A DNA stretch of 64,000 nt from Bacteroidales bacterium (GCA_003157015.1 PMIJ01000040.1:1604-65603), one strand, 5' to 3'. Shown: positions 1 to 15,637, counted from the stretch's first letter. The notes: a model not told the origin generated them from the sequence alone. Numbers and translations: made by a program.

Positions 1-802
1 GTCCCTCAAGTTCAGCAAGATTTTCCGGCCCGTCAACTCTGTGAATTCTGCTATCCGCGCTGCCTGTCCTGTAAAAACTACTTACACCGGGAGAATTTAC
101 AACACCTGATTTTGCTACAGAAACTGACAGGCTTGTCTCAACCGGATTGCCCGCCATATCACTTGCAGAAATCTCCATTCTTATCCTTTCCCTGCTACCA
201 TATACAGGTTTATCAAGTGTGATTTTATAATTAATCACTTTTTTATTATCACCGGCAGAAAATCGTTTTATAATCTGATTACCCTCAATGTCATATATAC
301 TGCCTTGTTGCTGAGCTCCTGCAATTGCATTAACTGAATCGGAACTTTTGTTATCCGGTGGAATTTTAAGATGATCGATACTTTCAAATGGATTGATTAC
401 AGAAATGGTCCGATAGAAAAATTCATCAGTTGAAAAATTTTTCATCCAGTTTGTATAGGCCCGGATCAAATAATTTCCTGAACTTATATTATCGGGCAGA
501 ATGAAACTTGCTGAACCGGAACTTTTTTCGATCTTTACTTTTACCTGTCTTAAAGGGAAGTTGTTTTTGTCGAGTAATTCCAGATAGACCACTTTGCTTA
601 TGTCATCTTGAGTATTAGCGAGCCCGTTCAATGTATAAGCTTTGAACCAGACCTCTTCACCGGAAATATAAATATCGCGATCAGTCCTGACAAAAATCTC
701 TTCTTTAAAATTCCGAATATCAGAATCGCTGGTTTTATCAATTAATTGCTGGGAGTATGATTGGCGGCTGAAAAGAAAAGTGAGAAGAAATAAAATTCTC
801 AT
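1..802 (-). CDS. Secreted protein with MG2/macroglobulin-like N-terminal modules (5' part only; gene runs off the window start)
   Basis: Not in the ORF track because no stop lies in the window. My reverse-complement reading from the ATG at 802..800 stays open to position 1. It begins MRILFLLTFLFSRQSYSQQ (signal peptide), then shows TDRDIYISGEEVWFKAYTL and LDKPVYGSRERIRMEISASD, which resemble MG2-type domain starts. It is on the same strand as the DUF4249-like array and 55 nt downstream of it. Confidence 0.5.
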   Translation of the reverse strand, partial: MRILFLLTFLFSRQSYSQQLIDKTSDSDIRNFKEEIFVRTDRDIYISGEEVWFKAYTLNGLANTQDDISKVVYLELLDKNNFPLRQVKVKIEKSSGSASFILPDNISSGNYLIRAYTNWMKNFSTDEFFYRTISVINPFESIDHLKIPPDNKSSDSVNAIAGAQQQGSIYDIEGNQIIKRFSAGDNKKVINYKITLDKPVYGSRERIRMEISASDMAGNPVETSLSVSVAKSGVVNSPGVSSFYRTGSADSRIHRVDGPENLAELEG

Positions 803-857
803 ATTCAGTTTAGGTATCCGGCCAATCAGATCATAATATTTTTTCAGATTTTGCATA

Positions 858-2090
858 TTATTTAAGATCGATCCAGAAATCTGGTTTGGTTATAGTTCCG
901 GTTATTGTACAATCAGCACATTCAGGTCTGGCAAATACCATCTTTTCAAGATTAAACGTTCCTGCAGAGTACTGAGGTTCAACAAAATAATAATCTGAAG
1001 TTATACAATACATTGAATATAAATCATCCCAGGTAGGGGGAGGCGACTCATATCCATGCGGAATATCAGTCGGATCTTTTACCAGTCGTTCACATTGATA
1101 TTGATAAATAGGCAGATTCATACCCGAAATTTCGCCGAAAGTTATGTTTTTTCTTTTTTGTTTCATACCTGAAACCTGGAAATAACCCAGAACCCTTTCA
1201 GTCGGGTCACTGACATTATGAATATTGCTGAGAACCGTAAATGGTTGTTTAGCGAAGATATCGCCGCCGCTTTCATTTACCTGTTTCAGATTATTCCAAA
1301 AATCGTATTCTTCTTTTGAAATCGAATACTGGCTTACAAGAATGCTATATTGAATGAGCAACCTGTCGGATTGATCGGTTGCAATGAAATTTACGGGCTC
1401 CTTCTTAATTGGGGCAGCCTGACCTGAATAGTTGGAATATATCAATATTTCACTGGATCTTTGACTTTTCCAGCAAAATTCCTTGAGATCAGTAACCGCA
1501 GTAATTGCGCTGTCAGCCATATTAAAATTAAACTTCTTGGGATCCGGCACTTTAAATTTCCAGGTCTCGTTGAAATCCCACCGATAATATTGGTTATTAT
1601 CTCCCTCTTTTGAGTCAAGATAAATTTCTACCCCTTCCTCGGTCTGAGTTTCATTATTGATCACCTGATCATCTTTTGCAAAATAAATGCTGTCAATGTC
1701 GGGAACGGATTGCATCAGACAAGCGTCCGATTCATATTCCACCCCGTCACTGGTCCTTATATGCAAAACATATGTTCTCCCCGGAATGCCATTAAATTGA
1801 GTACTGTCTGTTTTATAGATCCCGTTTCCTCTATTAATCAAATTGCTGTTGCCACCGGCATCATTGGTAATGAATACGATTGCATCAGAAACCAACGACG
1901 GCATAGAATTCTGTACCTGGAATGTTCTGGATAGCTTAACTGTATATGAGGTATTTGCATCTGTAATCAAACCCTCAACAACCAACAGAGAGCTGTACCC
2001 TTTAAGTTGTGGACTATAAGGGTCAATACACGTAGAAAGCAAAAAGAGAGCAAACAAAGCAATAATATATTTATGCTTCACTTTTAACAT
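858..2090 (-). CDS. DUF4249-like lipoprotein, tandem paralog 1
   Basis: 410 aa ORF. Lipoprotein signal ends ...LLSTC-IDPY, followed by LVVEGLITD. Cys-rich C-terminus ends RPECADCTITGTITKPDFWIDLK. Paralogous to the next three genes. The family label is from memory of DUF4249 (lipoprotein linked to CarboxypepD_reg TonB receptors). Confidence 0.85.
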   Translation of the reverse strand: MLKVKHKYIIALFALFLLSTCIDPYSPQLKGYSSLLVVEGLITDANTSYTVKLSRTFQVQNSMPSLVSDAIVFITNDAGGNSNLINRGNGIYKTDSTQFNGIPGRTYVLHIRTSDGVEYESDACLMQSVPDIDSIYFAKDDQVINNETQTEEGVEIYLDSKEGDNNQYYRWDFNETWKFKVPDPKKFNFNMADSAITAVTDLKEFCWKSQRSSEILIYSNYSGQAAPIKKEPVNFIATDQSDRLLIQYSILVSQYSISKEEYDFWNNLKQVNESGGDIFAKQPFTVLSNIHNVSDPTERVLGYFQVSGMKQKRKNITFGEISGMNLPIYQYQCERLVKDPTDIPHGYESPPPTWDDLYSMYCITSDYYFVEPQYSAGTFNLEKMVFARPECADCTITGTITKPDFWIDLK

Positions 2091-2238
2091 GAAGCAGTAG
2101 TTATATGATTATTCATGTCTATTGAACTGTAATTAATAGGGAAACAAAAATAATATTTATTATGTACCCAGTACCATCCAATCAACAAGAATCTGATATA
2201 AAAATGAGAACGCTATTATTTATTGCAAAAACAAATCA

Positions 2239-3483
2239 TTATAGATCTACCCAGAAATCTGGCTTTTTTGAAGTTCCGGTTAATTCGCAATTTGCACACT
2301 CGGGCCTGGCAAAAACCAAATACAACAGAACATCTGACACATTATTATAGATCGGCTCTGTAAAAGTATAATCTAAAGCTATACTCAAATGCCAGTAAAG
2401 GTCGTCCCAGGTCGGAGGTGGGCAGTTTAGACATCCTTGAGGTAGATACAAAAGATCAAGTTTCAATGTATTGCATGGGTATGAATAAAAAGGCAGACCC
2501 ATTAAAGCAACATCTCTGTAAAGTATATATTTTCTTTGTTGCGATACTGCTGACACCTGGAAATAACCTAAAACACGTTCTTTAGGATTATTAATGTTTT
2601 TGATATTGCTGAGAATAGTATATGGTTGTTTTGCGAATATATCACCGCCAATTTCATTTATCTGTTTCAGATTATTCCAGAAATCATATTCATTTTTTGA
2701 AACAGAATATTGCTTTACCAGAATACTGTATTGAAGCAATAACCTGTCTGATTCACCAGTTGCTATAAAAATAACCGGTTGCTTACTTATTTTTTTTGGT
2801 TGCCCCTCACTGATTGATCTTATCAGTATTTCGCCAGATTGGCTGTTCTTCCAGCAGAATTCTTTAACATCAGTAACCGGCATAAAGATGGGATTTTCCG
2901 GATCGGCTGTTTTTATATAATTAAACTTCTTCGGACTTGGTACTTTAAATTTCCATGTCTCCTCATATTCCCAGCGATAATACTGGTTATTATCTCCCTC
3001 TTTTGAATCGAGATAAACACTAATACCATCCTGGGTCTGAGTTTCATTATTGATCACCTGATCATCTTTTGCAAAATAAATGCTGTCAATGTCGGGAACA
3101 GGATTCATCAGGCATGCGGCTGACTCATATTCCGACCCGTCGCTGGTTTTAATATGCAGAACATATGTTCTCCCGGGAATGCCATTAAACCGGGTGCTGT
3201 CTGTTTTATATATCCCGCTTCCCTTGTTAATCAAGATTGTGCTGTTCCCTGCATTATCGGTTATGAATACAGTTGCATCAGAAACCGGGGGAGGAGTTGA
3301 ATTCAGGTCCTGAAATGTTCTTGATAACCTGACGATATATGAACTATTCGCATCAGTAATAAGGCCATCGACTACCAAAAGAGAAGTGTAACCCGAAAGA
3401 TTGGGAGTATACGGATCAATACATGTGCTAAATATAAAAACAAATGCTAAAGCAATTATTGATTTGAGCCTCAGCTTAAACAT
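2239..3483 (-). CDS. DUF4249-like lipoprotein, tandem paralog 2
   Basis: 414 aa ORF. Lipobox ...IFSTC-IDPY. C-terminus RPECANCELTGTSKKPDFWVDL. Closest to paralog 3. Confidence 0.85.
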   Translation of the reverse strand: MFKLRLKSIIALAFVFIFSTCIDPYTPNLSGYTSLLVVDGLITDANSSYIVRLSRTFQDLNSTPPPVSDATVFITDNAGNSTILINKGSGIYKTDSTRFNGIPGRTYVLHIKTSDGSEYESAACLMNPVPDIDSIYFAKDDQVINNETQTQDGISVYLDSKEGDNNQYYRWEYEETWKFKVPSPKKFNYIKTADPENPIFMPVTDVKEFCWKNSQSGEILIRSISEGQPKKISKQPVIFIATGESDRLLLQYSILVKQYSVSKNEYDFWNNLKQINEIGGDIFAKQPYTILSNIKNINNPKERVLGYFQVSAVSQQRKYILYRDVALMGLPFYSYPCNTLKLDLLYLPQGCLNCPPPTWDDLYWHLSIALDYTFTEPIYNNVSDVLLYLVFARPECANCELTGTSKKPDFWVDL

Positions 3484-3620
3484 GTAGCTTGATTTGATTT
3501 ATTTAACATATCATTTGTACTGAAATTGACGCGTAAACTAAAGATAATAATTAATAACTACACCATACTCCTTTCAAAATGACCAGGATATGAGAACTTT
3601 ATTATAAAGGTTAAAACAAA

Positions 3621-4862
3621 TCAGTTCAGATCAACCCAGAAATAAGGTCTTTTCGAAGTTCCGGTTAACTCACAATTTGCACACTCCGGTCTGGTAAATA
3701 CTAATTCCAGAAGAATATCTGAAACTTGATTAAATGTTGGCTCAATAAAAGCATAATCTTCAATTATACACAAATGCCAGTAAACGTCGTCCCAGGTCGG
3801 AGGTGGACACATACACAGGGTTGCAAAATCCATGGGATTATATTCCAATGTTCTGCACGGATAAGAATAAAAAGGCAGACCCATCAAAGCAACATCTCTG
3901 TAAAGTATATTTTTTCTTTGTTGTGATACTGCCGACACCTGGAAATAACCTAAAACACGTTCTTTAGGATTATTTGTACTATGAATATTGCTCAGAACAG
4001 CATAGGGTTGTCTGGCAAATATGTCTCCTCCGGTTTCATTTACCTGTTTCAGACTATTCCAGAAATCAAATTCATTTTTTGAGATAGAGTATTGCTTTAC
4101 CAGAATATTGTATTGAAGCAATAACCTGTCAGATTCACCAGTTGCTATAAAAATAACCGGTTGCTTGCTTATTTTTTTTGGTTGCCCATCACTGATTGAT
4201 CTTATCAGTATTTCATCAGATTGTCTGTTCTTCCAGCAGAATTCCTTAACATCTGCAATTGGCATAAAGATAGGATTGTTGGGATCGGATGTTTTTACAT
4301 AATTAAACTTCTTCGGATCTGATACCTTAAATTTCCAGGTCTCCTCATAAGCCCAGCGATAATACTGATTATTATCTCCCTCTTTTGAATCAAGATAAAT
4401 ACTAATGCCATCCTGGGTCTGTGTTCCATTATTGACCAGCTGCTGATCCTTTGCGAAATATATGCTGTCAATATCCGGAACAGGATTCATCAGGCATGCG
4501 TCCGATTCATATTCCGATCCGTCACTGGTTTTTATGTGCAAAACATATGTTCGCCCTGGAGAGCCATTAAATTGAGTACTGTCTGTTTTATAAATCCCGT
4601 TTCCCCCGTTAATCAAATTATTGTTGTTTCCTGCATCATCAGAAATGAATACAGTTGCATCAGAAACCGGTGGAGGAGTTGAATTCTGGTCCTGAAATGT
4701 TCTTGATAACCTGACGATATATGAACTATTCGCATCAGTAATAAGTCCATCGACTACCAAAAGAGAGGAGTAGCCTGAAAGTTTTGGAGTGTACGGATCA
4801 ATACAGCTGCAAAGTAAAGAGAGAACAACTATAGTAATAATTGATTTGTGCCTCTTTAACAT
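3621..4862 (-). CDS. DUF4249-like lipoprotein, tandem paralog 3
   Basis: The ORF track extends to 4985. The paralog alignment and the signal peptide MLKRHKSIITIVVLSLLCSC-IDPY support the ATG at 4862 instead. The upstream 41 codons align with the non-coding spacers of the other units. Confidence 0.8.
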   Translation of the reverse strand: MLKRHKSIITIVVLSLLCSCIDPYTPKLSGYSSLLVVDGLITDANSSYIVRLSRTFQDQNSTPPPVSDATVFISDDAGNNNNLINGGNGIYKTDSTQFNGSPGRTYVLHIKTSDGSEYESDACLMNPVPDIDSIYFAKDQQLVNNGTQTQDGISIYLDSKEGDNNQYYRWAYEETWKFKVSDPKKFNYVKTSDPNNPIFMPIADVKEFCWKNRQSDEILIRSISDGQPKKISKQPVIFIATGESDRLLLQYNILVKQYSISKNEFDFWNSLKQVNETGGDIFARQPYAVLSNIHSTNNPKERVLGYFQVSAVSQQRKNILYRDVALMGLPFYSYPCRTLEYNPMDFATLCMCPPPTWDDVYWHLCIIEDYAFIEPTFNQVSDILLELVFTRPECANCELTGTSKRPYFWVDLN

Positions 4863-5007
4863 TATGCAGTTGTTATCCTTTTTATTCACGTCAATTGAAC
4901 CGTAATTGACCGGAAAACAAATATAATACTTATTACTTCCTCTAACGGTCAATACAGTAAGAATCTGACACAAATTTGAAAACAATACAATTTAAGGTTA
5001 AAACAAA

Positions 5008-6240
5008 TCAGTTGAGATCAACCCAGAAGTCTGGTTTATTAGAGGTTCCTGTCAATTCACAATCTGCACATTCCGGCGTAGTGAACACCAAGGCTTCAAT
5101 GGCTCCGGTTAAAGAATTGTACTGTGGTTCAATAAAATAATAATTCGATCTTATACAAAAAAGCGAATATAAATCGTCCAATGTGGGTGGAGATCCGCCA
5201 TATCCGGTTGGATAATCATTCGGGTCTTTTACAATCCTTGCACATTGATCATACAGGAAAAAGGGCAGATGCATTTTTGCAAATTCACTGAATGGAATAA
5301 ATAATCTCATTTGTTTTACAGCTGAAACCTGGAAATAACCCAGTACCTGTTCTTTCGAATTGTTGATATTATGGAGATTACTGACTACAGGGAATGGCTG
5401 TGATGCAAATATATCTGCCCCGCTTGCATTAACTTGTTGTAAATTATCCCAAAATTCGTATTCATTTTTTGAAATGGAATACTGCTTTACAAGAATGCTG
5501 TACTCAATCATTAAACGGTCGGACTTATTACTTGCTATAAAAAATATAGGTACATTTTTAATCGGGCCAGTTTCTCCTGAATTAACCGAACGGATTAATA
5601 CTTCATCACTTTTATTGCTTTTCCAGCAAAATTCTTTAACGTTTTTAACCGGAATAACTGTACCTCCGATAAGATAATCATACTTTTTAGGATCCGGCAC
5701 TCTGAATTTCCAGGTCTCTTCATATGACCACCGGTAATATTGATTTTTGTCGCCCGGCTTTGAATCGAGATAGATTCTGATTCCATCCTCGATTTCAGTA
5801 TTGTTGTTTACCAGCTCCTGATCCCTCGCAAAATAAACACTGTCGATGTCAGGAACAGGCTGCATTGCACATGGATCTGAAATATATGTATAGCCTTCCT
5901 GGGTAATAATATGTAATGTATACGCTCTCCCGATGATTCCTATAAATTGGATACTGTCTGTTTTATAAATCCCGTTTCCCCCGTTAATCAAATTATTGTT
6001 GTTTCCTGCATCATCAGTTATGAATACAGTAGCATCAGAAACCCAGGGAGGGATTGAATTCTGGTCCTGAAATGTTCTTGATAACCTGACGATATATGAA
6101 CTATTCGCATCAGTAATAAGTCCATCGACTACCAAAAGAGAGGAGTAGCCTGAAAGTTTTGGAGTGTACGGATCAATACAGGTGCAAAGTATAAAGACTG
6201 TAATTAAAACAACACCAGACTTCAGCCAAGTTCTCTTCAT
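5008..6240 (-). CDS. DUF4249-like lipoprotein, tandem paralog 4
   Basis: 410 aa ORF. Lipobox ...ILCTC-IDPY. The N-terminal ~100 aa are almost identical to paralog 3. The C-terminal Cys-rich part is most like paralog 1. Confidence 0.85.
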   Translation of the reverse strand: MKRTWLKSGVVLITVFILCTCIDPYTPKLSGYSSLLVVDGLITDANSSYIVRLSRTFQDQNSIPPWVSDATVFITDDAGNNNNLINGGNGIYKTDSIQFIGIIGRAYTLHIITQEGYTYISDPCAMQPVPDIDSVYFARDQELVNNNTEIEDGIRIYLDSKPGDKNQYYRWSYEETWKFRVPDPKKYDYLIGGTVIPVKNVKEFCWKSNKSDEVLIRSVNSGETGPIKNVPIFFIASNKSDRLMIEYSILVKQYSISKNEYEFWDNLQQVNASGADIFASQPFPVVSNLHNINNSKEQVLGYFQVSAVKQMRLFIPFSEFAKMHLPFFLYDQCARIVKDPNDYPTGYGGSPPTLDDLYSLFCIRSNYYFIEPQYNSLTGAIEALVFTTPECADCELTGTSNKPDFWVDLN

Positions 6241-6407
6241 TTAACAATTTTTACTAAATTTATAACTTCTTTTGAAACTATGTTATAACCAAACCTGAAT
6301 AAAGCCTAAACAAAAACACAAGTTTCAGCTTTAATAAAGATAATACCGGAATTAAAAATAATAGGGCCAAAAGTATTTCAGATTATAAAAATTTGTTATT
6401 TCGGGAA

Positions 6408-7223
6408 ATGAAATTCGAGTGCTTTGCCTTTAAGTTGAAAATTCTCTTCCTGCTCATTCTTCTTCCATTTGTTCTTCCTTCCCGGGGTCAGAATGGTAAT
6501 CTGTTAAATAATAATTCAATAAATAACTTGGAAAATAGTAATCTGGGGTCTCTTACTAACAGACAGATCAGTTATATAAAAAGCTCATACTCAGAAAAAA
6601 TTGAATCGCGCGGTGAATTTATTAATGGGAAGGAATATGAATCTTATTATGGCCGTAGTATTTATAAACCACTATTATTCCCTGATAAAAAACGCAACTC
6701 TACACTATTTACCCGTACCAGGCGATATAGCAATATGACATTGCAATATGACACTTTCCTGGATGAGGTTATATATACTGATACAAGCAGGACAATAAAT
6801 TACATGTTCCCTCAAATTGCTTTAAATAAAGACATCGTTGAAGGGTTTAATCTTTATCTTGAAAATGACAGCTTAATTTTCAGAAATTTCCGGCTCGCGG
6901 AATCTTCCATGTACAACCTGAAAGAGGGATTTTATGAAATAGCTTACCTTGGGAAGAGCAAGTATGTGATAAAACACACTTCGTCATTTTATGTAAAAGA
7001 CGGGTTAAATGAGTACAAATATTCGCCTGAAAATTATTTTAGTGTCGGTGATGTTTTTTACAGATTAACTGGAAAAAGGAAACTTCTTAAGCTATTCGGA
7101 GAGAAAGCCCATGAAGTTAAAAAGTATATTCATATATCGCGGATAAGGATCAGACAGGCTGATAAAAATCAATTTATCAGTATTTTGAAATTTTACGATT
7201 CCCTGAGTGCTGTCGGAAAATAA
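6408..7223 (+). CDS. Hypothetical secreted protein (no family recognised)
   Basis: The ORF 6393..7223 starts on TTG. The first ATG at 6408 gives MKFECFAFKLKILFLLILLPFVLPSRGQ, a signal peptide. The stop lies 5 nt before the TonB-receptor ATG, so co-transcription is likely. Confidence 0.65.
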   Translation: MKFECFAFKLKILFLLILLPFVLPSRGQNGNLLNNNSINNLENSNLGSLTNRQISYIKSSYSEKIESRGEFINGKEYESYYGRSIYKPLLFPDKKRNSTLFTRTRRYSNMTLQYDTFLDEVIYTDTSRTINYMFPQIALNKDIVEGFNLYLENDSLIFRNFRLAESSMYNLKEGFYEIAYLGKSKYVIKHTSSFYVKDGLNEYKYSPENYFSVGDVFYRLTGKRKLLKLFGEKAHEVKKYIHISRIRIRQADKNQFISILKFYDSLSAVGK

Positions 7224-7228
7224 AGAAG

Positions 7229-10009
7229 ATGAAAAAGGTTTTTTACATATTGCCGTTTTTATTCCTGGTATTTGATATACAAGCTCAGGATAATAACCTG
7301 TCGCTCCGTTTCAAACAGATACTTTTCAGGGACCTGGCTGATACAATTGAAAAAACAGTGGCTGTAAAGATCTATTACTCAAATAACTGGGTGGATAGCC
7401 TTTATCTGGATATCAATTCTGAAAATGAAAACCTTAATACCATATTTGACAAATCATTTGCAAAAAGCGGGCTTTCATTTATTATTACAGATAAAAATAA
7501 GATCATCCTTTCAAAAGGGTACACTATCAAGACCAATTTCAGAAAAGAATATCTTGAATATCTTGAAAAGAACCTGACGAAAGCCGATACTGTCAAATAC
7601 TCAAGATCTGTGCGGAAGACTGAAGATAAACAAATTAATGACGAGTACAAAGTATTTAAAATTGGTAATCCTTCAGGCCAGAGTAACGATGGAAAAGTTG
7701 TTCTTTCCGGGACAATTACCAAACCTGAAACAGGAGAAGCTCTGGCTGGAGTTATTATTTATATCGCAAAGTTGAAAATAGGAGCAGTCACCAATAGTGT
7801 TGGCTTTTACTCAATTGAGTTGCCCAGGGGTCAGTACCAGGCAGAGTTCAGGATGGTGGGCCTGCGTCAGACAGTCAGAAACATTATTATATATTCCGAT
7901 GGAGCTTTAAATGTTGAAATGGCTGAAAATACAAATCAGTTGAATGAGGTTATTGTTTCAGCAAACAGGGAAAATATAGTCAGAAACGTAAGAATGGGTA
8001 TTGAGAAAATCAATATTAAGATGCTTAAGCAAATCCCAATGGGGATGGGAGAAGTGGATGTATTCAAGAGTTCCTTACTTTTACCAGGAGTTCAGTCTGT
8101 CGGAGAAGCATCAAGCGGATATAACATCAGGGGAGGAAGCGCAGATCAAAACCTGATCTTATTAAATAGCGCTCCAATCATAAATCCTTCCCATTTTTTT
8201 GGATTCTTCTCTGCCTTTAACTCTGATATGATTGAGGATGTTACGCTGTACAAAAGCGGCATGCCGGCAAAATTCGGGGGACGGGTTTCTTCTGTTATGG
8301 ATATCGATTTAAAACAGGGAAGCATGGAAAAGTTTAATGTAAGTGGTGGAATAAGCCCGCTTACAGGAAGATTAATGATCGAGGGTCCGATAATAAAAAA
8401 GAAGGCTTCGTTTATTATCAGCACGAGAACAACTTATTCAGACTGGATCTTAAAACAACTTAAAAACATCCAGCTGCAAAAAAGCAGCGCCAGTTTTTAT
8501 GATATCCAGGGTCTTTTGACTTTTAATCCGAATGATAAAAACTCAATAACACTTTCAGGTTATTTAAGCAATGATTATTTTAATTATTATAAAGAAAGCA
8601 CCATAAGTTACAGTAACCTGGCCTCAACCCTTAACTGGAGGCATGTTTACACCCCACGATTCTCTTCCCAATTCTCAGCCATTTTAAGCAACTATGAGTA
8701 TCATGACAATTCAACACAGGATTCAACATCGTTTTATTCATTGTATTACCGACTGAATCAACAAATATTCAGAGCTGATTTCACTTACCGGCCCAATGAT
8801 CAACATAAAATTGATTTCGGTCTTGATGCCACAAATTATTACCTTATGCCAGGTGATCAGAAGCCGGTCGGAACATATTCTGTGATAGTGCCTAAACAAC
8901 TGGAAAGCGAGAGAGCGCTTGAGCCGGCAATTTATGCCAGCGATGAATATGAAATATCACCAAGGTTATTACTATCGGGAGGTTTGCGATTCACACTCTT
9001 TACTGAATTCGGACCTAAGACTCAACTGGAGTATAATCCTGATGGTCCGAGAAGTCTGGATAATATTGTTGATACAATACATTACGGAAGCGGGAAAATA
9101 ATAAAGACGTACCCGGGCCTCGAGTTCAGGTTTTCTTCAAGGTTTGTCATCGATCCCGACCTGTCGGTAAAAGCAGGGATCCAAAGGAACTACCAGTATC
9201 TGGATATGATCTCAAATACGACCTCTATGACACCGACAGATATCTGGAAGCTGAGCGATAATTATATTAAGCCACAAAGAGGAGATCAGTTTTCACTGGG
9301 AATCTACAAGAACCTGAACAATAAAGCTCTTGAAATATCGGTGGAAGGCTATTATAAAATATTAAAAAATATTCTCGATTATAAGGGAGGAGCGGAACTA
9401 CTGATGAATGATCATCTCGAAACTGATATCCTCAATGGGAACGGTAAAGCATATGGGATAGAATTTATGGTTAAGAAACAGCTAGGGATGCTCACCGGGT
9501 GGATAAGCTATACCTATTCGCGGGTTTTATTGAAAGTAGACGGAAAATATGAAGAAGAGAAAATAAACAATGGAAATTATTTTCCGGCAAACTATGATAA
9601 ACCCAATGATCTTAAATTCGTTGCCAATATGAAGTTTTTCAGAAGACTGAATTTTACAACTAATTTTGTTTACAATACCGGAAGACCAATAACATATCCG
9701 GTGGCTTACTATGATTTTCTTAACGTAGACCGGGTATTTTATTCGGAAAGGAACGAATTCCGCATTCCCGATTATATGAGACTTGATTTTGCTGCAACCA
9801 TAAACGGTAACCTGAAAGCAAAAAAACTAAATCACTCCTCTTTTACATTTACTGTTTATAACGCTCTTGGCAGGAAGAATCCGTACTCAATCTTTTTCAA
9901 AGACGAGAATGGTGTTGTGAAAGGCTACCAGATGTCAATTTTCGGCCAACCAATCTTTATGGTTACATATAATTTCAGGATACTTGGAAATGCTTCAACA
10001 GATTTCTAG
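7229..10009 (+). CDS. TonB-dependent receptor with N-terminal STN-like signalling domain, CarboxypepD_reg domain, plug and beta-barrel
   Basis: 926 aa with a signal peptide. STN-like segment: LSLRFKQILFRDLADTIEKTVAVKIYYSNNWVDSL...GLSFIITDKNKIILSK. CarboxypepD_reg segment: VVLSGTITKPETGEALAGVIIYIAKLKIGAVTNSVGFYSIELPRGQY. Plug-like segment: DVFKSSLLLPGVQS...GYNIRGGSADQNLILLNSAPI. The long C-terminal part alternates in beta-strand fashion and ends in a terminal F. Confidence 0.85.
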   Translation: MKKVFYILPFLFLVFDIQAQDNNLSLRFKQILFRDLADTIEKTVAVKIYYSNNWVDSLYLDINSENENLNTIFDKSFAKSGLSFIITDKNKIILSKGYTIKTNFRKEYLEYLEKNLTKADTVKYSRSVRKTEDKQINDEYKVFKIGNPSGQSNDGKVVLSGTITKPETGEALAGVIIYIAKLKIGAVTNSVGFYSIELPRGQYQAEFRMVGLRQTVRNIIIYSDGALNVEMAENTNQLNEVIVSANRENIVRNVRMGIEKINIKMLKQIPMGMGEVDVFKSSLLLPGVQSVGEASSGYNIRGGSADQNLILLNSAPIINPSHFFGFFSAFNSDMIEDVTLYKSGMPAKFGGRVSSVMDIDLKQGSMEKFNVSGGISPLTGRLMIEGPIIKKKASFIISTRTTYSDWILKQLKNIQLQKSSASFYDIQGLLTFNPNDKNSITLSGYLSNDYFNYYKESTISYSNLASTLNWRHVYTPRFSSQFSAILSNYEYHDNSTQDSTSFYSLYYRLNQQIFRADFTYRPNDQHKIDFGLDATNYYLMPGDQKPVGTYSVIVPKQLESERALEPAIYASDEYEISPRLLLSGGLRFTLFTEFGPKTQLEYNPDGPRSLDNIVDTIHYGSGKIIKTYPGLEFRFSSRFVIDPDLSVKAGIQRNYQYLDMISNTTSMTPTDIWKLSDNYIKPQRGDQFSLGIYKNLNNKALEISVEGYYKILKNILDYKGGAELLMNDHLETDILNGNGKAYGIEFMVKKQLGMLTGWISYTYSRVLLKVDGKYEEEKINNGNYFPANYDKPNDLKFVANMKFFRRLNFTTNFVYNTGRPITYPVAYYDFLNVDRVFYSERNEFRIPDYMRLDFAATINGNLKAKKLNHSSFTFTVYNALGRKNPYSIFFKDENGVVKGYQMSIFGQPIFMVTYNFRILGNASTDF

Positions 10010-10011
10010 CA

Positions 10012-10494
10012 TCACAAATCTTTAAGCATCCAGATATTGCAGCCGAAATGACCTGATTTACCCATGGGTCCTGAGATAAATATAAACCCAGCCTTCTCAT
10101 ATAAACTGATGGCCCTGTTTAATTCCGGAAGGGATTCCAGATATAATTGCCTGTATCCGTATTTTTTAGCTGACTCAAAGGTTTTTTCCATCAGGTTCCG
10201 TCCTATTCCTCTTCCCCTCTGTGTTGCTGAAATATAAAACTTGACAAGCTCGGCACATCCTTCAGGCAATCCGGGAGTCGGATAGACACCACAGCCTCCA
10301 ATTATAACTCCGTTTTCCTCCGCTATCCAGTATTCTGATCCGGGCGCCCTGAAAAGCTCAAAAAGATTGTCCGTTGTCGGATCGAAATAAACCGTTCCGG
10401 GTCTGTGGATATTAAATTCCCTGAAAACCCCACGTATAAGATTTGCAATTTCTTTATTGTCTTTTTCTTCAATAGGCCTGAAAATGATATCCAT
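10012..10494 (-). CDS. GNAT family N-acetyltransferase
   Basis: 160 aa. Acetyl-CoA motif A: QRGRGIGRNLME. Typical GNAT size and layout. Confidence 0.85.
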   Translation of the reverse strand: MDIIFRPIEEKDNKEIANLIRGVFREFNIHRPGTVYFDPTTDNLFELFRAPGSEYWIAEENGVIIGGCGVYPTPGLPEGCAELVKFYISATQRGRGIGRNLMEKTFESAKKYGYRQLYLESLPELNRAISLYEKAGFIFISGPMGKSGHFGCNIWMLKDL

Positions 10495-10510
10495 TTTAAT
10501 CCATTTTATT

Positions 10511-10587
10511 TACACCCCCTTCCCACCCTTCCCCCACGGGGGAAGGAGTTAATCATTTCCCCCGTGGGGGAAAATGAAAGGGGGTAA
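10511..10587. repeat. G/C-run nested palindromic intergenic element
   Basis: 'ttcccccacgggggaa' (10529-10544) has its reverse-complement partner 'ttcccccgtgggggaa' (10558-10573). These are flanked by 'acccccttccc' (10514-) and 'gaaagggggt' (-10586). The element is strongly GC-rich against AT-rich surroundings. It lies between the stop of 10621..13296 and the start of the GNAT gene. Confidence 0.8.
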
Positions 10588-10620
10588 TATTTAGAAAAAG
10601 AGAACAAATGATTATGACAA

Positions 10621-13296
10621 TCACAGAGAAAACCAGTAATTCAGTTTAATAAGAAAAATATTATTCGGGAATATACTCCTTATCTGTTTATAGGACTCAC
10701 CAATGGTCGCATTTGATTGAACAGTGTTCTCAGTCCGGTCCGATGACCATACAAAATAAATGAAAGATCCCAGACGGTATTCCCATCTGGCAACCAGATT
10801 AGACCTGAACTGATGAAAATTAAAATCAGGGTCGGCAATTGAATAATCAATTCTTGGTCCGTTATTGTAGTCATATAACTGGTACATACCTTCTGAAAGC
10901 GCCTGATCCTGATAAATTTCGAACCTGTTATTGTAATCTGATGAACGAGGATTTGTAACAAACTTTAGCTGTGAATATTTTCCTATAGAAACGAACGGGC
11001 TGCCATAGTATTGAATTGAAAATTCAGGAGTCACATTCAGATCAACTCTGAAAGTCAGCCCCAGTGTTTTCTGATCAATGGTACCGAGTATATATCTGTT
11101 GCCGGGTACATCATAGCTTGTGGTTACATACTGCAGCCTGTCATGATTATTCATATAATTCGCAGTCACTCCTATCTTAAGATTATTAATCGGTCGATAG
11201 GTTATTCCGGGTTCAACCTGATAGCTTCTGGCTGAATTATTACCCGTATACTGATAACTACCAAGCATGCTGCCAGTAATTTTTTTTGTCTGATCGGTAG
11301 CCAGGGTCCCGGTTGAGGTAATTGTATATGGCATTATCATGGCATACCCTCCGCGAAGAATTTTGGTGTCAAGAGTCTTCGTATGATAGATTTCATTTGC
11401 AGCGAAACTCCATTGATTTTTGAACACCGAGGTTAATGTGAGATTGGCGCCTGAGCCAAGATATTCTCCATTAAAGTCCCATGTATTGATTTGTTCGAGG
11501 CTTATATCACAGGTACTGAATATTGAAAAAGGCTGATTTATTCCGTACGAAACCACATTGTCCTGATTTATTACATCAGCGGTAGTCATATAACCCAGAT
11601 CATTCAATTCAAGGCCCGGGGAAAACCAAGTTGCTCCGGTTGCAAATTTCCATAGCCCTTTGGAACCTTTACCGATCATAAATTTGCCTCCGTATCCGCT
11701 GAGTGTAGTGGCTGTAGAATCAAATTTAAGATAGCTGGCGCCCGGCCGCTGGTAATAGCGGGCAGACGATTCCTGAAGCGCAGTGATCGACTGCCTGCTT
11801 CCGTTTATGAAGCTGCCGATAAGCCTGGCATCAATGTAAAACTCTTTGTCTTTCCAATGTGTTAAGAGATCCAGGCCTCCTGTATAAGCATTGGTGCTGA
11901 GCGACTCAAGATTCGTGTTTGAGATATCACGATTCGTCGATGTCAGCATTCCGCCAATTACCGTATTACCCGCATTATAACCTTTCTGTATACGTGCAAC
12001 TGTGTAACTTGTCAGAGGTTCAACTATTAAGCTGCTCCTGTTTCCATCTTTATCACTTAGCCTGGCAAATTCATTTGCAGTTACACTTTGTATTAATCCA
12101 ACTGAAAGTCCGTTTGAAGTCGTTCCGCTGAGTTTAAGAGCGCTGATGATGGCTGTCTTGTCAGGTGCATCCACAAAAAGGTTGTCATTCGGAGCAACGG
12201 AAAGCGACGGTGCATGACCTATTCGCCTGGAATAAAACAGAATATTGTTGTTAAATTTATAATCGAAAATAGTCAGTCCTTCAAGGAAAAAGGGTCGCTT
12301 CTCCTCATAAAAAGTTTCAAATGCTGTTAAGTTCATCACTGATGGATCGGACTCAACCTGTCCAAAATCAGGATTTACAGTAAGGTCAACAGTGAAGTTA
12401 CTTGAAATACCAATCTTTGCATCGAGTCCGGCATTTCCACCCCAGGTCCTTCCTTTTTCCGTAAAGGGATTCCCTTGTTCTTTTGGCATGGTTTTAAGAT
12501 CTCCCAGCGTGTATGGTGATATTTCAAGACGACGTGATTTTTTTAATCCTTTAATACCCCTCAGCTCACCAAAGTTAAAAAGTACTCCGGGACCTGTCTT
12601 ACTCTGTATCTCCCAATCGCTCTCTTCCTGGAGTCGCGATATCCAGCGCCAGACATGCATTCCCCACACTTGTTCATCTTTATTGCTATAACGCAACTGA
12701 CTGAGCGGAATCTCATATTCTGCAACCCACGCTGAATCTTCCAATCCGGTTTTTACCTTCCATACTGCATTCCAGTTTGTATCCCAGTTATTAGGGTTGA
12801 ATAATACAAGATCAACTTTCTGACCCCATGCGGTTACGGTAAACTCAAACCCTGTCCGATAATCACGGTAGCTGTCAAAATTTACACCTGCCATGTCTCC
12901 GACCTGTTCATCACGTGCGCCTGCCAGCCTCATAATTTTTCCTGGTTCTCCATCATATGCCCTGATGGCAACATACAGATTCTTGTCATCATACTGAATA
13001 TTCAATTCAGTAGGATAAGTGGGCTTAGCTCCCTCCTTGGGAATCCATTGGTGGAAGTTTGATGCCCATGTACCTTTCTTCCAGCATTCATCGTCGAGCT
13101 TTCCGTCAATGACCGGCTTTGAAGTTACCAGCCGGGTTGTTATATAGACAGGTTGCTTTGGAGAATTCTGTGTATGAACCGTATCCTGAAAGTTATTAAA
13201 CGAATTATGCGATGGCGATGAATATGTCCGGAAAGTAAACAGGACAGCAACAAGAAATAAATGAAGAATTTGGTTAACAGTACGGGCTAATTTCAT
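10621..13296 (-). CDS. CBM9/DOMON-like carbohydrate-binding domain protein with large C-terminal beta-rich domain (DUF5916-like)
   Basis: 891 aa with a signal peptide. The N-terminal segment VIDGKLDDECWKKGTWASNFHQWIPKEGAKPTYPTELNIQYDDKNLYVAIRAYD matches the CBM family 9-like pattern. The long C-terminal region is beta-rich and ends in aromatic residues. The family name is from memory. Confidence 0.6.
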   Translation of the reverse strand: MKLARTVNQILHLFLVAVLFTFRTYSSPSHNSFNNFQDTVHTQNSPKQPVYITTRLVTSKPVIDGKLDDECWKKGTWASNFHQWIPKEGAKPTYPTELNIQYDDKNLYVAIRAYDGEPGKIMRLAGARDEQVGDMAGVNFDSYRDYRTGFEFTVTAWGQKVDLVLFNPNNWDTNWNAVWKVKTGLEDSAWVAEYEIPLSQLRYSNKDEQVWGMHVWRWISRLQEESDWEIQSKTGPGVLFNFGELRGIKGLKKSRRLEISPYTLGDLKTMPKEQGNPFTEKGRTWGGNAGLDAKIGISSNFTVDLTVNPDFGQVESDPSVMNLTAFETFYEEKRPFFLEGLTIFDYKFNNNILFYSRRIGHAPSLSVAPNDNLFVDAPDKTAIISALKLSGTTSNGLSVGLIQSVTANEFARLSDKDGNRSSLIVEPLTSYTVARIQKGYNAGNTVIGGMLTSTNRDISNTNLESLSTNAYTGGLDLLTHWKDKEFYIDARLIGSFINGSRQSITALQESSARYYQRPGASYLKFDSTATTLSGYGGKFMIGKGSKGLWKFATGATWFSPGLELNDLGYMTTADVINQDNVVSYGINQPFSIFSTCDISLEQINTWDFNGEYLGSGANLTLTSVFKNQWSFAANEIYHTKTLDTKILRGGYAMIMPYTITSTGTLATDQTKKITGSMLGSYQYTGNNSARSYQVEPGITYRPINNLKIGVTANYMNNHDRLQYVTTSYDVPGNRYILGTIDQKTLGLTFRVDLNVTPEFSIQYYGSPFVSIGKYSQLKFVTNPRSSDYNNRFEIYQDQALSEGMYQLYDYNNGPRIDYSIADPDFNFHQFRSNLVARWEYRLGSFIYFVWSSDRTENTVQSNATIGESYKQIRSIFPNNIFLIKLNYWFSL

Positions 13297-13444
13297 TTCA
13301 ATTGAAAAAGACAGGTTAGTAGTTAAAAATTATCCAAATTTATAAGAATAACTTATAATTGGGTATGTTTTAAAAATATAATCTTCTTATATTCGGTGTT
13401 AATTATAAAATATTAATTGTGAATAAACACAAAACTAAATACTT

Positions 13445-15637
13445 ATGAAAAATATTTTTCTTTTAATCACCCTTATTTTTACAATCAGTTTTGGAACTTT
13501 GGGACAACCTCCAATCGGTCAACCTCCTGTCAACCAGCCACCCGATATCTTTATCCCGATATCAACTTTAAATACCGATCTGGTTTTTAAAGTCAATGGC
13601 AGGGATGGAAGACTTTATCAGGTCTATCTGGGTTCTAAACTTGACAATATTTCCGAACTGAAATTTGCTAGAAATGCAGATCATATTGCCTATGCAACTT
13701 TTGGTACCGATAATCTTTTCGAACCAGCTATCAGGATGACGCACAATGACGGAAATCCATCCCTTGAACTGAAGTATGTAAGTCACAATATTGAGAAACC
13801 AGATGGCGATTTAACTATTACAAATATCCTGCTTAAAGATCCTGAATATCCGGTTGAAGTTACTCTTCATATTAAGGCATACTCTGCCGAAGATGTAATA
13901 GAACAGTGGGTTGAAATTGTGCAGAAGGAGGCCAAACCTGTCACTGTCTTTAATTACGCTTCATCTATGCTTCATTTTGATGCAAATAAATACTGGCTCA
14001 CACAATTTCATGGTGACTGGGCTGAAGAGATGAAGATGCAGGAGAATGAACTTACCAGCGGAATCAAAATCCTCGACAGCAAGCTAGGTACTCGTGCCCA
14101 TATGTACCAGACTCCAGTATTTTTTCTGTCTCTGAATGGAAAATCAGATGAAACAAGTGGTGAGCTTATCGCAGGCACACTGGGTTGGTCGGGTAATTTC
14201 CGGTTCCTTTTTGAAGTTGATGAAAAAGGTTCTCTCCGGGTTATTTCCGGAATCAATCCTTTCGCTTCAGAATACTCAATTCAGCCGGGAAAACCATTTA
14301 AGACTCCTTCATTTATCTTTACATATTCTAATCAGGGAAAGGGATTAGCCAGCAGGAACCTTCATCATTGGGCAGCGAATTATGGAATCCTGGATGGTAA
14401 AGGAACCCGTCTTACGCTTCTGAATAACTGGGAAACAACTTATTTCAATTTTAATGAACCTAAATTAGTCAGCTTACTGAATGATACAAAAAAGATGGGG
14501 CTTGATCTCTTCCTCCTGGATGATGGATGGTTTGCCAACAAATATCCAAGGAATGACGACCGTGCAGGACTTGGTGACTGGCAGGAAAATAAAGCAAAGC
14601 TGCCCGATGGATTGGGTTATCTTGTCAGGAAAGCTGATAGTACCGGAGTAAAATTTGGCATCTGGATAGAACCTGAAATGGTCAATCCAAAAAGCGAACT
14701 TTATGAAAATCATCCTGACTGGATCCTTAAGCTGCCAAACCGTCCAGAGAATTACTTCAGGAACCAGCTCGTTCTCGATCTTACAAATCCAAAAGTTCAG
14801 GATTTTGTGTTTAATGTAGTTGACGGGATGCTTACAAAATATCCGGGAATTGCATTTATCAAATGGGATTGCAACAGGATGATGACTAATGCCTATTCCG
14901 TTTATCTGAAAGACAGGCAATCTCAACTCTATGTTGATTATGTGAATAGTCTTTATAGTGTACTTGAAAGACTTCGTCAGAAATTCCCTCATTTGCCAGT
15001 AATGCTTTGTTCCGGTGGAGGAGGAAGGGTTGATTATGGAGCTCTCAGGTATTTCACTGAATTCTGGGCAAGTGATGACACTGATCCGGTTGAACGAGTC
15101 TATATTCAATGGGGTTACTCATACTTTTTTCCTTCATTCGCTATATGCAACCATATAACTTCGTGGGGCAAACAATCGCTTAAATTCAGAACAGATGTGG
15201 CAATGATGGGCAAAATTGGTTATGATATCCAGGTAAACGGGCTCACAGAAAAAGAATTGAAGTTCAGTCAGGATGCAATAGCCAATTATAAAAGGCTAAG
15301 TGACGTGATATGGCATGGTGATTTGTACCGGCTTGTCTCACCTTATGATGAAAACAGGGCAGTCCTCATGTATGTAAACAGTTCAAAAAACAAGGCTGTC
15401 CTATTTGCTTATACCCTTAATGCAAGGTTCGGAGAAAAATTTAATCAGGTTCGTTTGCAGGGGCTTGATCCCGCTAAAACTTATAAAATACAGGAAATTA
15501 ATATCTCTTCTGATGGACGCCGGTTTGGTCCGTCCGAAAATGGAAAGAGCTATACGGGTGACTATCTTTTGAAAATAGGTTTGAATGTCGGATCAGGAGC
15601 AGCTCTTACCAGCTCAGTATATGAAATAACAGAATAG
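13445..15637 (+). CDS. Alpha-galactosidase, glycoside hydrolase family 36
   Basis: 730 aa. The segment GLDLFLLDDGWFANKYPRNDDRAGLGDWQENKAKLPDGLGYLV...GVKFGIWIEPEMVNPKSELYENHPDWIL...FIKWDCNR gives the classic GH36 catalytic-domain motifs. An N-terminal signal peptide is present. Confidence 0.85.
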   Translation: MKNIFLLITLIFTISFGTLGQPPIGQPPVNQPPDIFIPISTLNTDLVFKVNGRDGRLYQVYLGSKLDNISELKFARNADHIAYATFGTDNLFEPAIRMTHNDGNPSLELKYVSHNIEKPDGDLTITNILLKDPEYPVEVTLHIKAYSAEDVIEQWVEIVQKEAKPVTVFNYASSMLHFDANKYWLTQFHGDWAEEMKMQENELTSGIKILDSKLGTRAHMYQTPVFFLSLNGKSDETSGELIAGTLGWSGNFRFLFEVDEKGSLRVISGINPFASEYSIQPGKPFKTPSFIFTYSNQGKGLASRNLHHWAANYGILDGKGTRLTLLNNWETTYFNFNEPKLVSLLNDTKKMGLDLFLLDDGWFANKYPRNDDRAGLGDWQENKAKLPDGLGYLVRKADSTGVKFGIWIEPEMVNPKSELYENHPDWILKLPNRPENYFRNQLVLDLTNPKVQDFVFNVVDGMLTKYPGIAFIKWDCNRMMTNAYSVYLKDRQSQLYVDYVNSLYSVLERLRQKFPHLPVMLCSGGGGRVDYGALRYFTEFWASDDTDPVERVYIQWGYSYFFPSFAICNHITSWGKQSLKFRTDVAMMGKIGYDIQVNGLTEKELKFSQDAIANYKRLSDVIWHGDLYRLVSPYDENRAVLMYVNSSKNKAVLFAYTLNARFGEKFNQVRLQGLDPAKTYKIQEINISSDGRRFGPSENGKSYTGDYLLKIGLNVGSGAALTSSVYEITE

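Follow-up and report, generated by a model that had tools for sequence, protein, structure and literature searches.

The DUF4249 protein BT2173 of Bacteroides thetaiotaomicron has been proposed to form the lid of BT2172, a transporter that is not of the SusC type (Price et al.; bioRxiv 10.1101/2023.03.17.533168; PMC11003636). The evidence for this pairing comprises cofitness of the two genes, contacts on the outer face of the transporter in AlphaFold-Multimer models, and an adjacency that is conserved across dozens of genera (bioRxiv 10.1101/2023.03.17.533168; PMC11003636). BT2172 is described in a separate preprint as a signal-transducing transporter in a polysaccharide utilization locus (PUL) without SusD. 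Several lid families have recently been put forward for non-SusC TonB-dependent transporters, DUF4249 among them, and none has a known ligand. Here we analyse a tandem array of four DUF4249 lipoprotein genes (c1-c4) at positions 858-6240 of a 64,000-nucleotide (nt) stretch of DNA from Bacteroidales bacterium (GCA_003157015.1 PMIJ01000040.1:1604-65603), referred to below as the window. An initial annotation of the window treated the family as having no known function, but a lid role had already been proposed for it (PMC11003636).

The data below show that a DUF4249 gene has expanded in tandem within a conserved four-gene cassette and that gene conversion acts on the N-terminal part of the copies; the reading that we favour, and regard as probable, is that the copies serve as alternative lids for the single adjacent transporter. 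The array consists of the following genes.

858-2090, minus strand: c1, DUF4249 lipoprotein gene, last copy of the array; 410 residues; PF14054 E 2.5e-40
2239-3483, minus strand: c2, DUF4249 lipoprotein gene; 414 residues; PF14054 E 1.3e-41
3621-4862, minus strand: c3, DUF4249 lipoprotein gene; 413 residues from the ATG at 4862; PF14054 E 1.9e-42
5008-6240, minus strand: c4, DUF4249 lipoprotein gene, first copy, beside the divergent promoter region; 410 residues; PF14054 E 2.9e-42

As initially annotated, the four genes share one strand, here the minus strand, a length of 410-414 residues and a lipobox-IDPY start, and belong to the DUF4249 family: all match PF14054 (E 2.5e-40 to 1.9e-42) with 139-146 bits against a gathering cut-off of 28.5, over residues 22 to ~315 and profile positions 1-267/269 of 269. 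The mechanical open reading frame of c3 begins at a TTG codon upstream of the ATG at 4862, and the ATG start was used. Read from the sequence, each protein has an h-region followed by an (S/C)(T/S)C-IDPY lipobox, the cysteine of which (Cys21) is invariant across 64 homologues. A C-terminal PECA(D/N)C..TGT..KP.FW.DL motif is common to all four copies; it had been given with a preceding arginine, which c4 lacks (TPECADC rather than RPECADC), a trivial departure. Stop-to-stop distances are 1381, 1382 and 1387 nt, in line with the repeat length first reported, and the spacers measure 148, 137 and 142 nt. The spacers had been described as alignable, which holds for the regions upstream of c1, c2 and c3 but not for that upstream of c4. 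Over whole genes, c2 and its closest paralogue c3 are 82% identical in nucleotide sequence, and all other pairs are 66-70% identical.

Identity between the copies is patchy. c3 and c4 are 98-100% identical over columns ~211-420 of the unit alignment (~200 nt near the 5' end) and fall to 48-55% thereafter. Two blocks of exact identity are shared between copies, of which the first had been reported as 126 nt and extends to 128 nt, and the second is of 66 nt, as reported.

6054-6181, minus strand: gene-conversion tract in c4, the recipient; exact match to c3 4679-4806 (128 nt)
4679-4806, minus strand: probable donor tract in c3; exact match to c4 6054-6181
1641-1706, minus strand: second conversion tract, c1 block; exact match to c2 3034-3099 (66 nt)
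3034-3099, minus strand: matching 66-nt block in c2, the likely recipient; exact match to c1 1641-1706

In a GENECONV-like test, in which the 565 polymorphic sites of the codon alignment were permuted and the longest matching run was scored for each pair, the longest c3/c4 run comprises 37 matching polymorphic sites (global p<2e-4) and the longest c1/c2 run 25 (pairwise p 2e-4, global p 0.004). The PHI test on the four copies is also significant (p=5e-4). These tests, with which a comparison to orthologues agrees, uphold the suggestion that the patchiness arises from recombination between the copies.

The recombination events were polarised against the closest species-level relative, a metagenome-assembled genome (MAG Bacteroidales fen_983, locus L007) with a syntenic five-copy array (p1-p5). 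Trees of the central and C-terminal parts pair c1 with p1, c4 with p5, c2 with p2/p3 and c3 with p4 as orthologues, and place the c1-type, c4-type and c2/c3-type genes of other species in the matching clades. In the N-terminal tree c4 departs from its orthologue p5 and joins the c2/c3 group. Nucleotide identity between c4 and p5 is 84% in the signal peptide, 69% over codon-alignment columns 64-190 (where c4 and c3 are 98% identical), 53% over columns 191-260, 75% over columns 261-385, 99% over columns 386-520 and 92-94% over the remaining gene, confining the switch of c4 from orthologue to c3 type to columns ~64-260. Because c4 is 98% identical to c3 but only 69% identical to p5 over columns 64-190, we conclude that it received a c3-type tract after the species split, with c3 the likely donor. 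In the 66-nt block, c1 is 100% identical to p1 and c2 only 87% identical to p2, indicating that c2 is likely to be the recipient of the c1 block.

Gene conversion repeatedly overwrites the N-terminal third (~codons 20-170) among c2, c3, c4 and a dispersed fifth paralogue, c5 (described below). The initial annotation had seen recombination as diversifying the central and C-terminal parts, whereas it homogenises the N-terminal third, and those other parts differ as old paralogue types. Its observation that N-terminal and C-terminal groupings conflict is borne out by the trees, which truly disagree; however, the C-terminal grouping of c1 with c4 is the mere complement of c2 with c3 in a four-taxon tree and provides no evidence of recombination.

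Copy number shifts by unequal crossing-over, with four copies here and five in the sister species. The counterpart of c3 in the alignment is p4 if one starts from the left flank and p3 if one starts from the right, as unequal crossing-over or a recent duplication would give, and p2 and p3 are separated by a synonymous divergence (dS) of 0.28. c1 is 96-100% identical in nucleotide sequence to its L007 orthologue (10001-11233; dS 0.11; 95% protein identity), and the flanking transporter and MG2/Plug genes (below) are 86-92% identical (dS ~0.5), well below the similarity of c1. The c1 similarity, together with the 99% identical part of c4, suggests a recent exchange of lid genes between the window lineage and that of L007.

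The c1 protein was found in 54 blocks of the assembly collection and is carried by all 23 contigs that were read. The four-copy structure recurs in five independent assemblies (JGI, ENA), with 99.93-99.99% identity across 10.5-12.1 kb, which bears on whether collapsed or expanded repeats could mimic an array. In favour of an artefact, the L004 contig is probably chimeric, with c5 and c3 joined within a 136-nt exact repeat. An artefact is nevertheless barely credible as an account of the array, given its recurrence in these assemblies, the overall identity of just 66-82% between the copies, which hence are easy to assemble, and the syntenic five-copy array of the sister species.

Each of the five good assemblies departs from the window at 1 or 8 positions across the 10.5-12.1 kb in common, always in the 5' part of c3 or c4. 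Among all assemblies, 26 of 26 differences fall in the N-terminal-coding part of c3 or c4 (codon-alignment columns 88-381), and the central and C-terminal variable regions are identical throughout. The check for population variation at the locus, proposed at the outset, found those variable parts essentially invariant. The haplotype of L003 and L005 carries seven clustered changes in c4 (6019-6053) that abut the identical block; all seven are the c3 base, so that in this haplotype the conversion tract is 35 nt longer. Gene conversion appears to be ongoing.

L054:8001-9236, outside the window: c5 (P0008), dispersed fifth paralogue, 411 residues

At least five assemblies, from samples of the same kind, contain the c5 locus, which has the gene order topoisomerase IV, shikimate kinase, HEAT-repeat protein, nSTAND/WD40 protein, c5, Y1 transposase. 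Its immediate neighbours are the nSTAND/WD40 NTPase gene on one side and the gene for the Y1 (IS200-like or REP-associated) transposase on the other. Over columns 91-510, identity between c5 and c3 is 97-100%, except at columns 271-330 (87-88%), and the two have a 136-nt exact match in common; the central part of c5 is closest to c1 (67-79%). From the co-occurrence in samples, and from MAG fen_980, in which the cassette (L008) is likewise accompanied by the orthologous second locus (L041), we infer that c5 resides in the same genome as the array. In the L004 contig (7226-8470) the c5 locus is joined to c3-c2-c1, giving three copies behind unrelated genes; the sequence has c5-type bases until column 381 and is identical to the window beyond. 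A three-copy structural variant is disfavoured because the junction lies inside the 136-nt exact c5/c3 repeat. L004 is probably an assembly chimera of c5 and c3, the alternative being a real recombinant.

The copies are intact old paralogues of three or more types, each copy being kept by purifying selection. The ratio of non-synonymous to synonymous divergence (dN/dS, omega) between c1-c4 and their L007 orthologues is 0.16-0.29 over whole genes, compared with 0.05 for the transporter and 0.17 for the MG2/Plug gene. Between paralogues, synonymous sites are saturated (dS 1.2-1.6; 0.46 for c2/c3). For c1 against c2/c3, omega is 0.13-0.14 in the N-terminal domain, at dS ~1, and 0.37-0.40 in the C-terminal domain, showing that conservation of the N-terminal domain is not only a product of conversion. 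Positive or diversifying selection was considered and is rejected at the level of genes and of mature-protein regions, omega being at most 0.40 in every mature-protein region; higher values occur only in the 21-codon signal-peptide segment, which is too noisy to interpret. As regards the diversification that the initial annotation implied, the dN/dS of 0.16-0.29 between orthologues shows no trace of diversifying selection. Copy-specific sequences persist in the central region and especially in the C-terminal domain of ~90 residues, in which 40-60% of residues differ between copies. In eight of nine arrays examined, paralogue divergence is highest in the C-terminal quarter (33-59% amino acid identity), and in the ninth (L125) this quarter is within two points of the quarter of lowest identity. 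The C-terminal, cysteine-bearing domain, singled out early as the most diverged, is therefore so in independently expanded arrays too.

Conversion among putatively exposed proteins raises the question of a surface-variation system of the vls, pilS or opa type, in which conversion would generate variants of targets exposed to phages, predators or bacteriocins. Phages and bacteriocins commonly use TonB-dependent transporters and their lipoproteins as receptors, and all assembly differences over 12 kb do lie inside the array, most of them being a paralogue's base. Nevertheless, conversion strikes the conserved N-terminal part rather than the variable parts, which do not vary among the assemblies, and dN/dS is below 1 in every mature-protein region. 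Every copy is also complete, with a start codon, lipobox and promoter-like box, leaving no silent cassette. The promoter-like boxes lie in the spacers.

2091-2238, minus strand: spacer upstream of c1; candidate Bacteroidetes-type -7 box TATTTTTG at 2145-2152, 54 nt before the ATG
3484-3620, minus strand: spacer upstream of c2; TATCTTTA at the homologous position, 55 nt before the ATG
4863-5007, minus strand: spacer upstream of c3; TATATTTG at 4918-4925, 55 nt before the ATG

By consensus match only, these boxes are candidate Bacteroidetes-type -7 promoter elements. Those of c1 and c3, 54-55 nt upstream, are of TAnnTTTG type, and c2 has TATCTTTA at the equivalent position. As read from these candidate elements, each array unit may have its own promoter. 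In a search for invertible promoters the only inverted repeats were weak and scattered, with 75-93% complementarity and a separation of 465-1444 nt; none of them brackets a spacer, and nothing points to phase variation. We consequently rate a surface-variation system as very improbable; the array is not a hypervariable cassette system.

The array is embedded in a cassette with three further genes, which in the window are arranged as follows.

2-856, minus strand: 5' part (first 285 residues) of the MG2/Plug gene, the rest lying beyond the window start; MG2 E 1.8e-10
6241-6407, no strand: divergent intergenic region between c4 and p276; no riboswitch and no inverted-repeat-flanked invertible promoter
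6408-7223, plus strand: p276, conserved secreted protein of 271 residues; no family; directly upstream of the transporter gene
7229-10009, plus strand: TonB-dependent transporter, 926 residues; CarbopepD_reg_2 E 4.7e-15, Plug E 2.6e-7

Two DUF4249-anchored scans and one transporter-anchored scan, with one genome per GTDB species, yielded ~125 loci that were mapped by profile searches. The cassette comprises p276, a transporter of ~925 residues, a variable number (N) of DUF4249 genes and an MG2/Plug protein of ~600-800 residues, and was found in the Bacteroidales, Marinilabiliales, Sphingobacteriales and Chitinophagales, as well as in one MAG labelled Chlorobiota. In the Sphingobacteriales and Chitinophagales the order p276 > transporter > DUF4249 > MG2/Plug is collinear on one strand, whereas in the clade of the window the DUF4249-MG2/Plug block is inverted and the two halves are divergently transcribed. 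Transporter homologues adjoin DUF4249 genes in almost all of ~80 transporter-anchored loci from the four orders, p276 immediately precedes the transporter in nearly all of these 80 loci, and in almost every cassette of the four orders the last DUF4249 gene is succeeded by the MG2/Plug gene.

Copy number was counted in the 82 loci in which the array is bounded on both sides, after loci fetched twice had been removed by contig name. A single DUF4249 gene is present in 58 of these loci, two copies in 16, three in 4, four in 1 (to which the window is to be added), five in 2 and six in 1. The usual state is therefore, as anticipated, a single gene beside a CarboxypepD_reg-type TonB receptor, and arrays of at least four copies are rare (4/82, ~5%). 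A further, unbounded array contains at least seven copies (L121). The four-gene battery had been presented as a departure from the single-gene norm, and it is indeed uncommon, but it is not unique, as arrays of three to at least seven copies recur in the same cassette elsewhere in the Bacteroidota. Arrays of four or more arose independently at least twice, once in the lineage of the window and L007 and once in Mucilaginibacter and other Sphingobacteriaceae (L097, L110, L121, L125). The latter four loci have arrays of four to at least seven in the same cassette, and some are from cultured organisms with complete genomes (for example Mucilaginibacter sp. McL0603, NZ_CP188251.1, with the array of L125). 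In Marinifilum caeruleilacunae (L088) the entire cassette (MG2/Plug, DUF4249, p276 and transporter) occurs twice in tandem, the whole unit rather than the lid gene alone having been duplicated. We found no literature on DUF4249 arrays or on the four-gene cassette among open-access papers and bioRxiv.

Such freely ranging copy number, from one to at least seven among relatives, would also be seen if the copies were redundant, retained for dosage or not yet lost, and undergoing concerted evolution without specialisation. The homogenisation of part of the genes by conversion fits that account, as do fragmented copies in relatives (L019, L071, L077, L138). Yet at a dS of 1.2-1.6 each paralogue remains under purifying selection, the c1, c4 and c2/c3 types all have orthologues in other species, and the copies differ at 40-60% of the residues of the C-terminal domain. 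Simple redundancy seems unlikely to us.

An AlphaFold2 (AF2) model of c4 (mean predicted local distance difference test (pLDDT) score 83.7) has two beta-sandwich domains, a helix and a small alpha/beta C-terminal domain at ~residues 320-410. The short canonical DUF4249 proteins (~327 residues; L051-L053) are without the C-terminal domain and also without C206, C333, C391 and C394, the last two of which form a CxxC motif. These four cysteines co-occur in all long-form members, down to 28% identity, and an intermediate form (L049) has equivalents of C206 and C333 only. Their pattern may reflect either two disulfides or a Cys4 metal site. No SusD/RagB-type Pfam domain was found in c1-c4 at E<0.01, in a search that readily found true SusD at another locus (L010); a PDB sequence search with c4 gave nothing at E<=1, and an NCBIfam search with the six cassette proteins gave no matches.

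By homology to BT2173, each copy would be a lipid-anchored lid or ligand-capture subunit that docks on the extracellular face of the adjacent transporter, a lid function that we infer for all four copies. The homogenised N-terminal part would form a shared structural or docking module, and the diverged central and C-terminal parts would confer differing ligand preferences. The array could then act as a battery of alternative lids, possibly each with its own promoter, that widens uptake through one barrel. The putative role first suggested for the array, that of a variable surface-exposed specificity component, is plausible. The lid gene is the part of the cassette that expands and diverges, while the transporter is single and highly conserved (dN/dS 0.05); this is the pattern expected of a specificity subunit, and it provides a natural set of variants.

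Several observations weigh against the alternative-lid reading. The lipidated cysteine is followed by a single acidic residue (IDPY(T/S)P), a weak match to the published Bacteroidota lipoprotein export signal. A Foldseek search of the PDB with the c4 model returned only generic tandem Ig/FnIII matches (TM<0.2) and no informative neighbour. Confinement of conversion to the N-terminal region could reflect prior highest similarity there and say nothing about docking, and the variants come from consensus assemblies of near-identical repeats, in which paralogue mis-phasing is possible. In addition, the array is transcribed divergently from the transporter gene and in the same direction as the MG2/Plug gene, from which it is separated by <=55 nt, and some close homologues lie behind SusC/SusD pairs or beside unrelated genes.

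These last two points would be explained if the copies served the MG2/Plug protein or other transporters, or acted as free-standing surface binders, rather than pairing with the adjacent transporter. Close homologues do follow SusC/SusD/BT_3987-like genes (L010, L013) or stand as orphans (c5). However, the one-strand gene order in the Sphingobacteriales and Chitinophagales, the near absence of transporters lacking a DUF4249 neighbour, and the cofitness of BT2172 and BT2173 argue that the adjacent transporter is the partner, and we hold a different partner to be a rather poor prospect. In favour of several lids per transporter, extra orphan long-form DUF4249 genes accompany a single cassette transporter in the genomes fen_980 (L008 and L041) and MFD02809 (L026, L027 and L040). 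The close homologues behind SusC/SusD pairs or beside unrelated genes indicate that not every DUF4249 member needs this transporter. At L010:1327-11224 and L013:3120-12589, pairs of long-form DUF4249 genes lie outside the cassette, downstream of a SusC-like, SusD-like and BT_3987-like PUL; they are 65-68% identical to c1/c2, with one L013 member at only 41%, and the L010 genome has its cassette elsewhere (L062).

A more elaborate version of the alternative-lid reading is tentative, and we would not expect all of it to hold. It would have one barrel served by many interchangeable lids, both tandem and dispersed, whose docking is kept compatible by conversion and whose Cys/CxxC domains set ligand specificity, with the MG2/Plug protein and p276 as obligatory parts of a four-component outer-membrane machine shared throughout the Bacteroidota.

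The transporter has an N-terminal extension of ~150 residues followed by a CarboxypepD_reg-like domain, a Plug domain and a presumed barrel. It has no Pfam barrel match; ~570 residues follow the Plug domain and the C-terminal residue is Phe, and the barrel assignment is drawn from this protein size and terminal Phe. The N-terminal extension was considered as a signalling domain and rejected, its only match being a non-significant FecR_C-like one (E 2). p276 has no NCBIfam match and no Pfam match even at E<=5, and a comparison of its AF2 model (pLDDT 78) with PDB folds gave nothing at E<0.1, the best match having E 0.12. It evolves quickly between the sister species (dN 0.20, dS 1.65).

The true start of the MG2/Plug gene is likely to be the ATG at 802, ahead of a signal peptide. 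The full gene, taken from L001:11235-13088, encodes 617 residues (~800 in other orders) with MG2 and Plug (E 6.5e-4) matches. The protein has a signal peptide, an N-terminal MG2 domain, Ig-like or CarboxypepD_reg-like repeats and a divergent Plug domain; MG2 is detected in all 22 family members and Plug in 9/22 (best E 7.8e-6). The initial annotation paired this protein with the array for co-folding, and we considered it as a receptor or transporter in its own right. That assignment is rejected because only ~120 residues follow the weak Plug domain in both the 617-residue and 798-residue forms, leaving no room for a barrel. BLASTP detects no similarity between the MG2/Plug protein and the transporter, and the only PDB entries matched in a profile search were complement C3, through its MG2 domain (E 7e-7), and, weakly and through the plug, the colicin I receptor (E 0.46). 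The gene after MG2/Plug lies on the opposite strand.

A riboswitch and RNA search over positions 1-14000 for a hint of the substrate found nothing relevant. A scan for sigma-70 promoters and intrinsic terminators showed no promoter enrichment and no terminators, with a promoter model that does not cover Bacteroidetes. Between the DUF5916 and GNAT genes there is a structured intergenic element (10494-10609) with sub-threshold Rfam matches (E 0.02-0.7), probably a hairpin or terminator. A 1171-residue protein encoded at 60397-63912, on the minus strand, combines SprB repeats and PKD-like domains with a type IX secretion signal of the CHU_C kind. Otherwise the window contains ordinary chromosomal genes, among them those for a GH36 alpha-galactosidase, fumarate reductase/succinate dehydrogenase-type flavoproteins and an S41 peptidase.

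The cassette (p276, transporter, DUF4249 x N, MG2/Plug), which is not mentioned in the literature that we found, is the unit to study together. As a partner in a TonB system, the MG2/Plug protein would be a plug without a barrel. Cultured Mucilaginibacter with multi-copy arrays offer a tractable model, NZ_CP188251.1 having four full-length copies and a fragment. The locus in the window is in addition a clean natural case of ongoing intragenomic gene conversion in an uncultured Bacteroidales population from peat or fen.

In its evolution the array resembles the lpl cluster of Staphylococcus aureus (PMC2568036), which is reported to have head-to-tail lipoprotein genes with homologous spacers, variable copy number and recombinant mosaics. 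The lpl genes belong to another family, another envelope and another presumed function, and they have the evolutionary mechanism alone in common with the array.

Gene conversion among paralogous surface-protein genes is also a property of Borrelia vls and Neisseria pilE/pilS, the surface location being predicted here. Unlike those systems, the array has no silent cassettes and no single expression site, it is the conserved region that is converted, and the variable regions show no polymorphism in the population.

In SusC/SusD, BtuB/BtuG (with BtuH and BtuJ) and XusA/XusB, a TonB-dependent barrel is capped by a surface lipoprotein, the arrangement predicted here; in the cobamide system, several surface lipoproteins are reported to be able to serve one transporter. 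In contrast to SusC/SusD and the other lids, the lipoproteins here have no SusD-type Pfam match and are paralogues of one another rather than members of different families. The predicted c4 fold, with its two beta-sandwiches and alpha/beta cysteine domain, is unlike the tetratricopeptide-repeat (TPR)-like fold of SusD or the beta-propeller of BtuG.

Relative to BT2172/BT2173, which has one lid gene, the locus has four in tandem and one dispersed. The copies are of a long-form subfamily, with more than 1300 homologues, that has an extra C...CxxC domain of ~90 residues, the array is divergent from the transporter gene, and p276 and MG2/Plug are constant cassette members that the BT2172/BT2173 papers do not mention. 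Compared by family and description, the two systems nevertheless share a PF14054 lipoprotein, a partner with a CarboxypepD_reg-like domain, a Plug domain and an N-terminal extension, and conserved gene neighbours.

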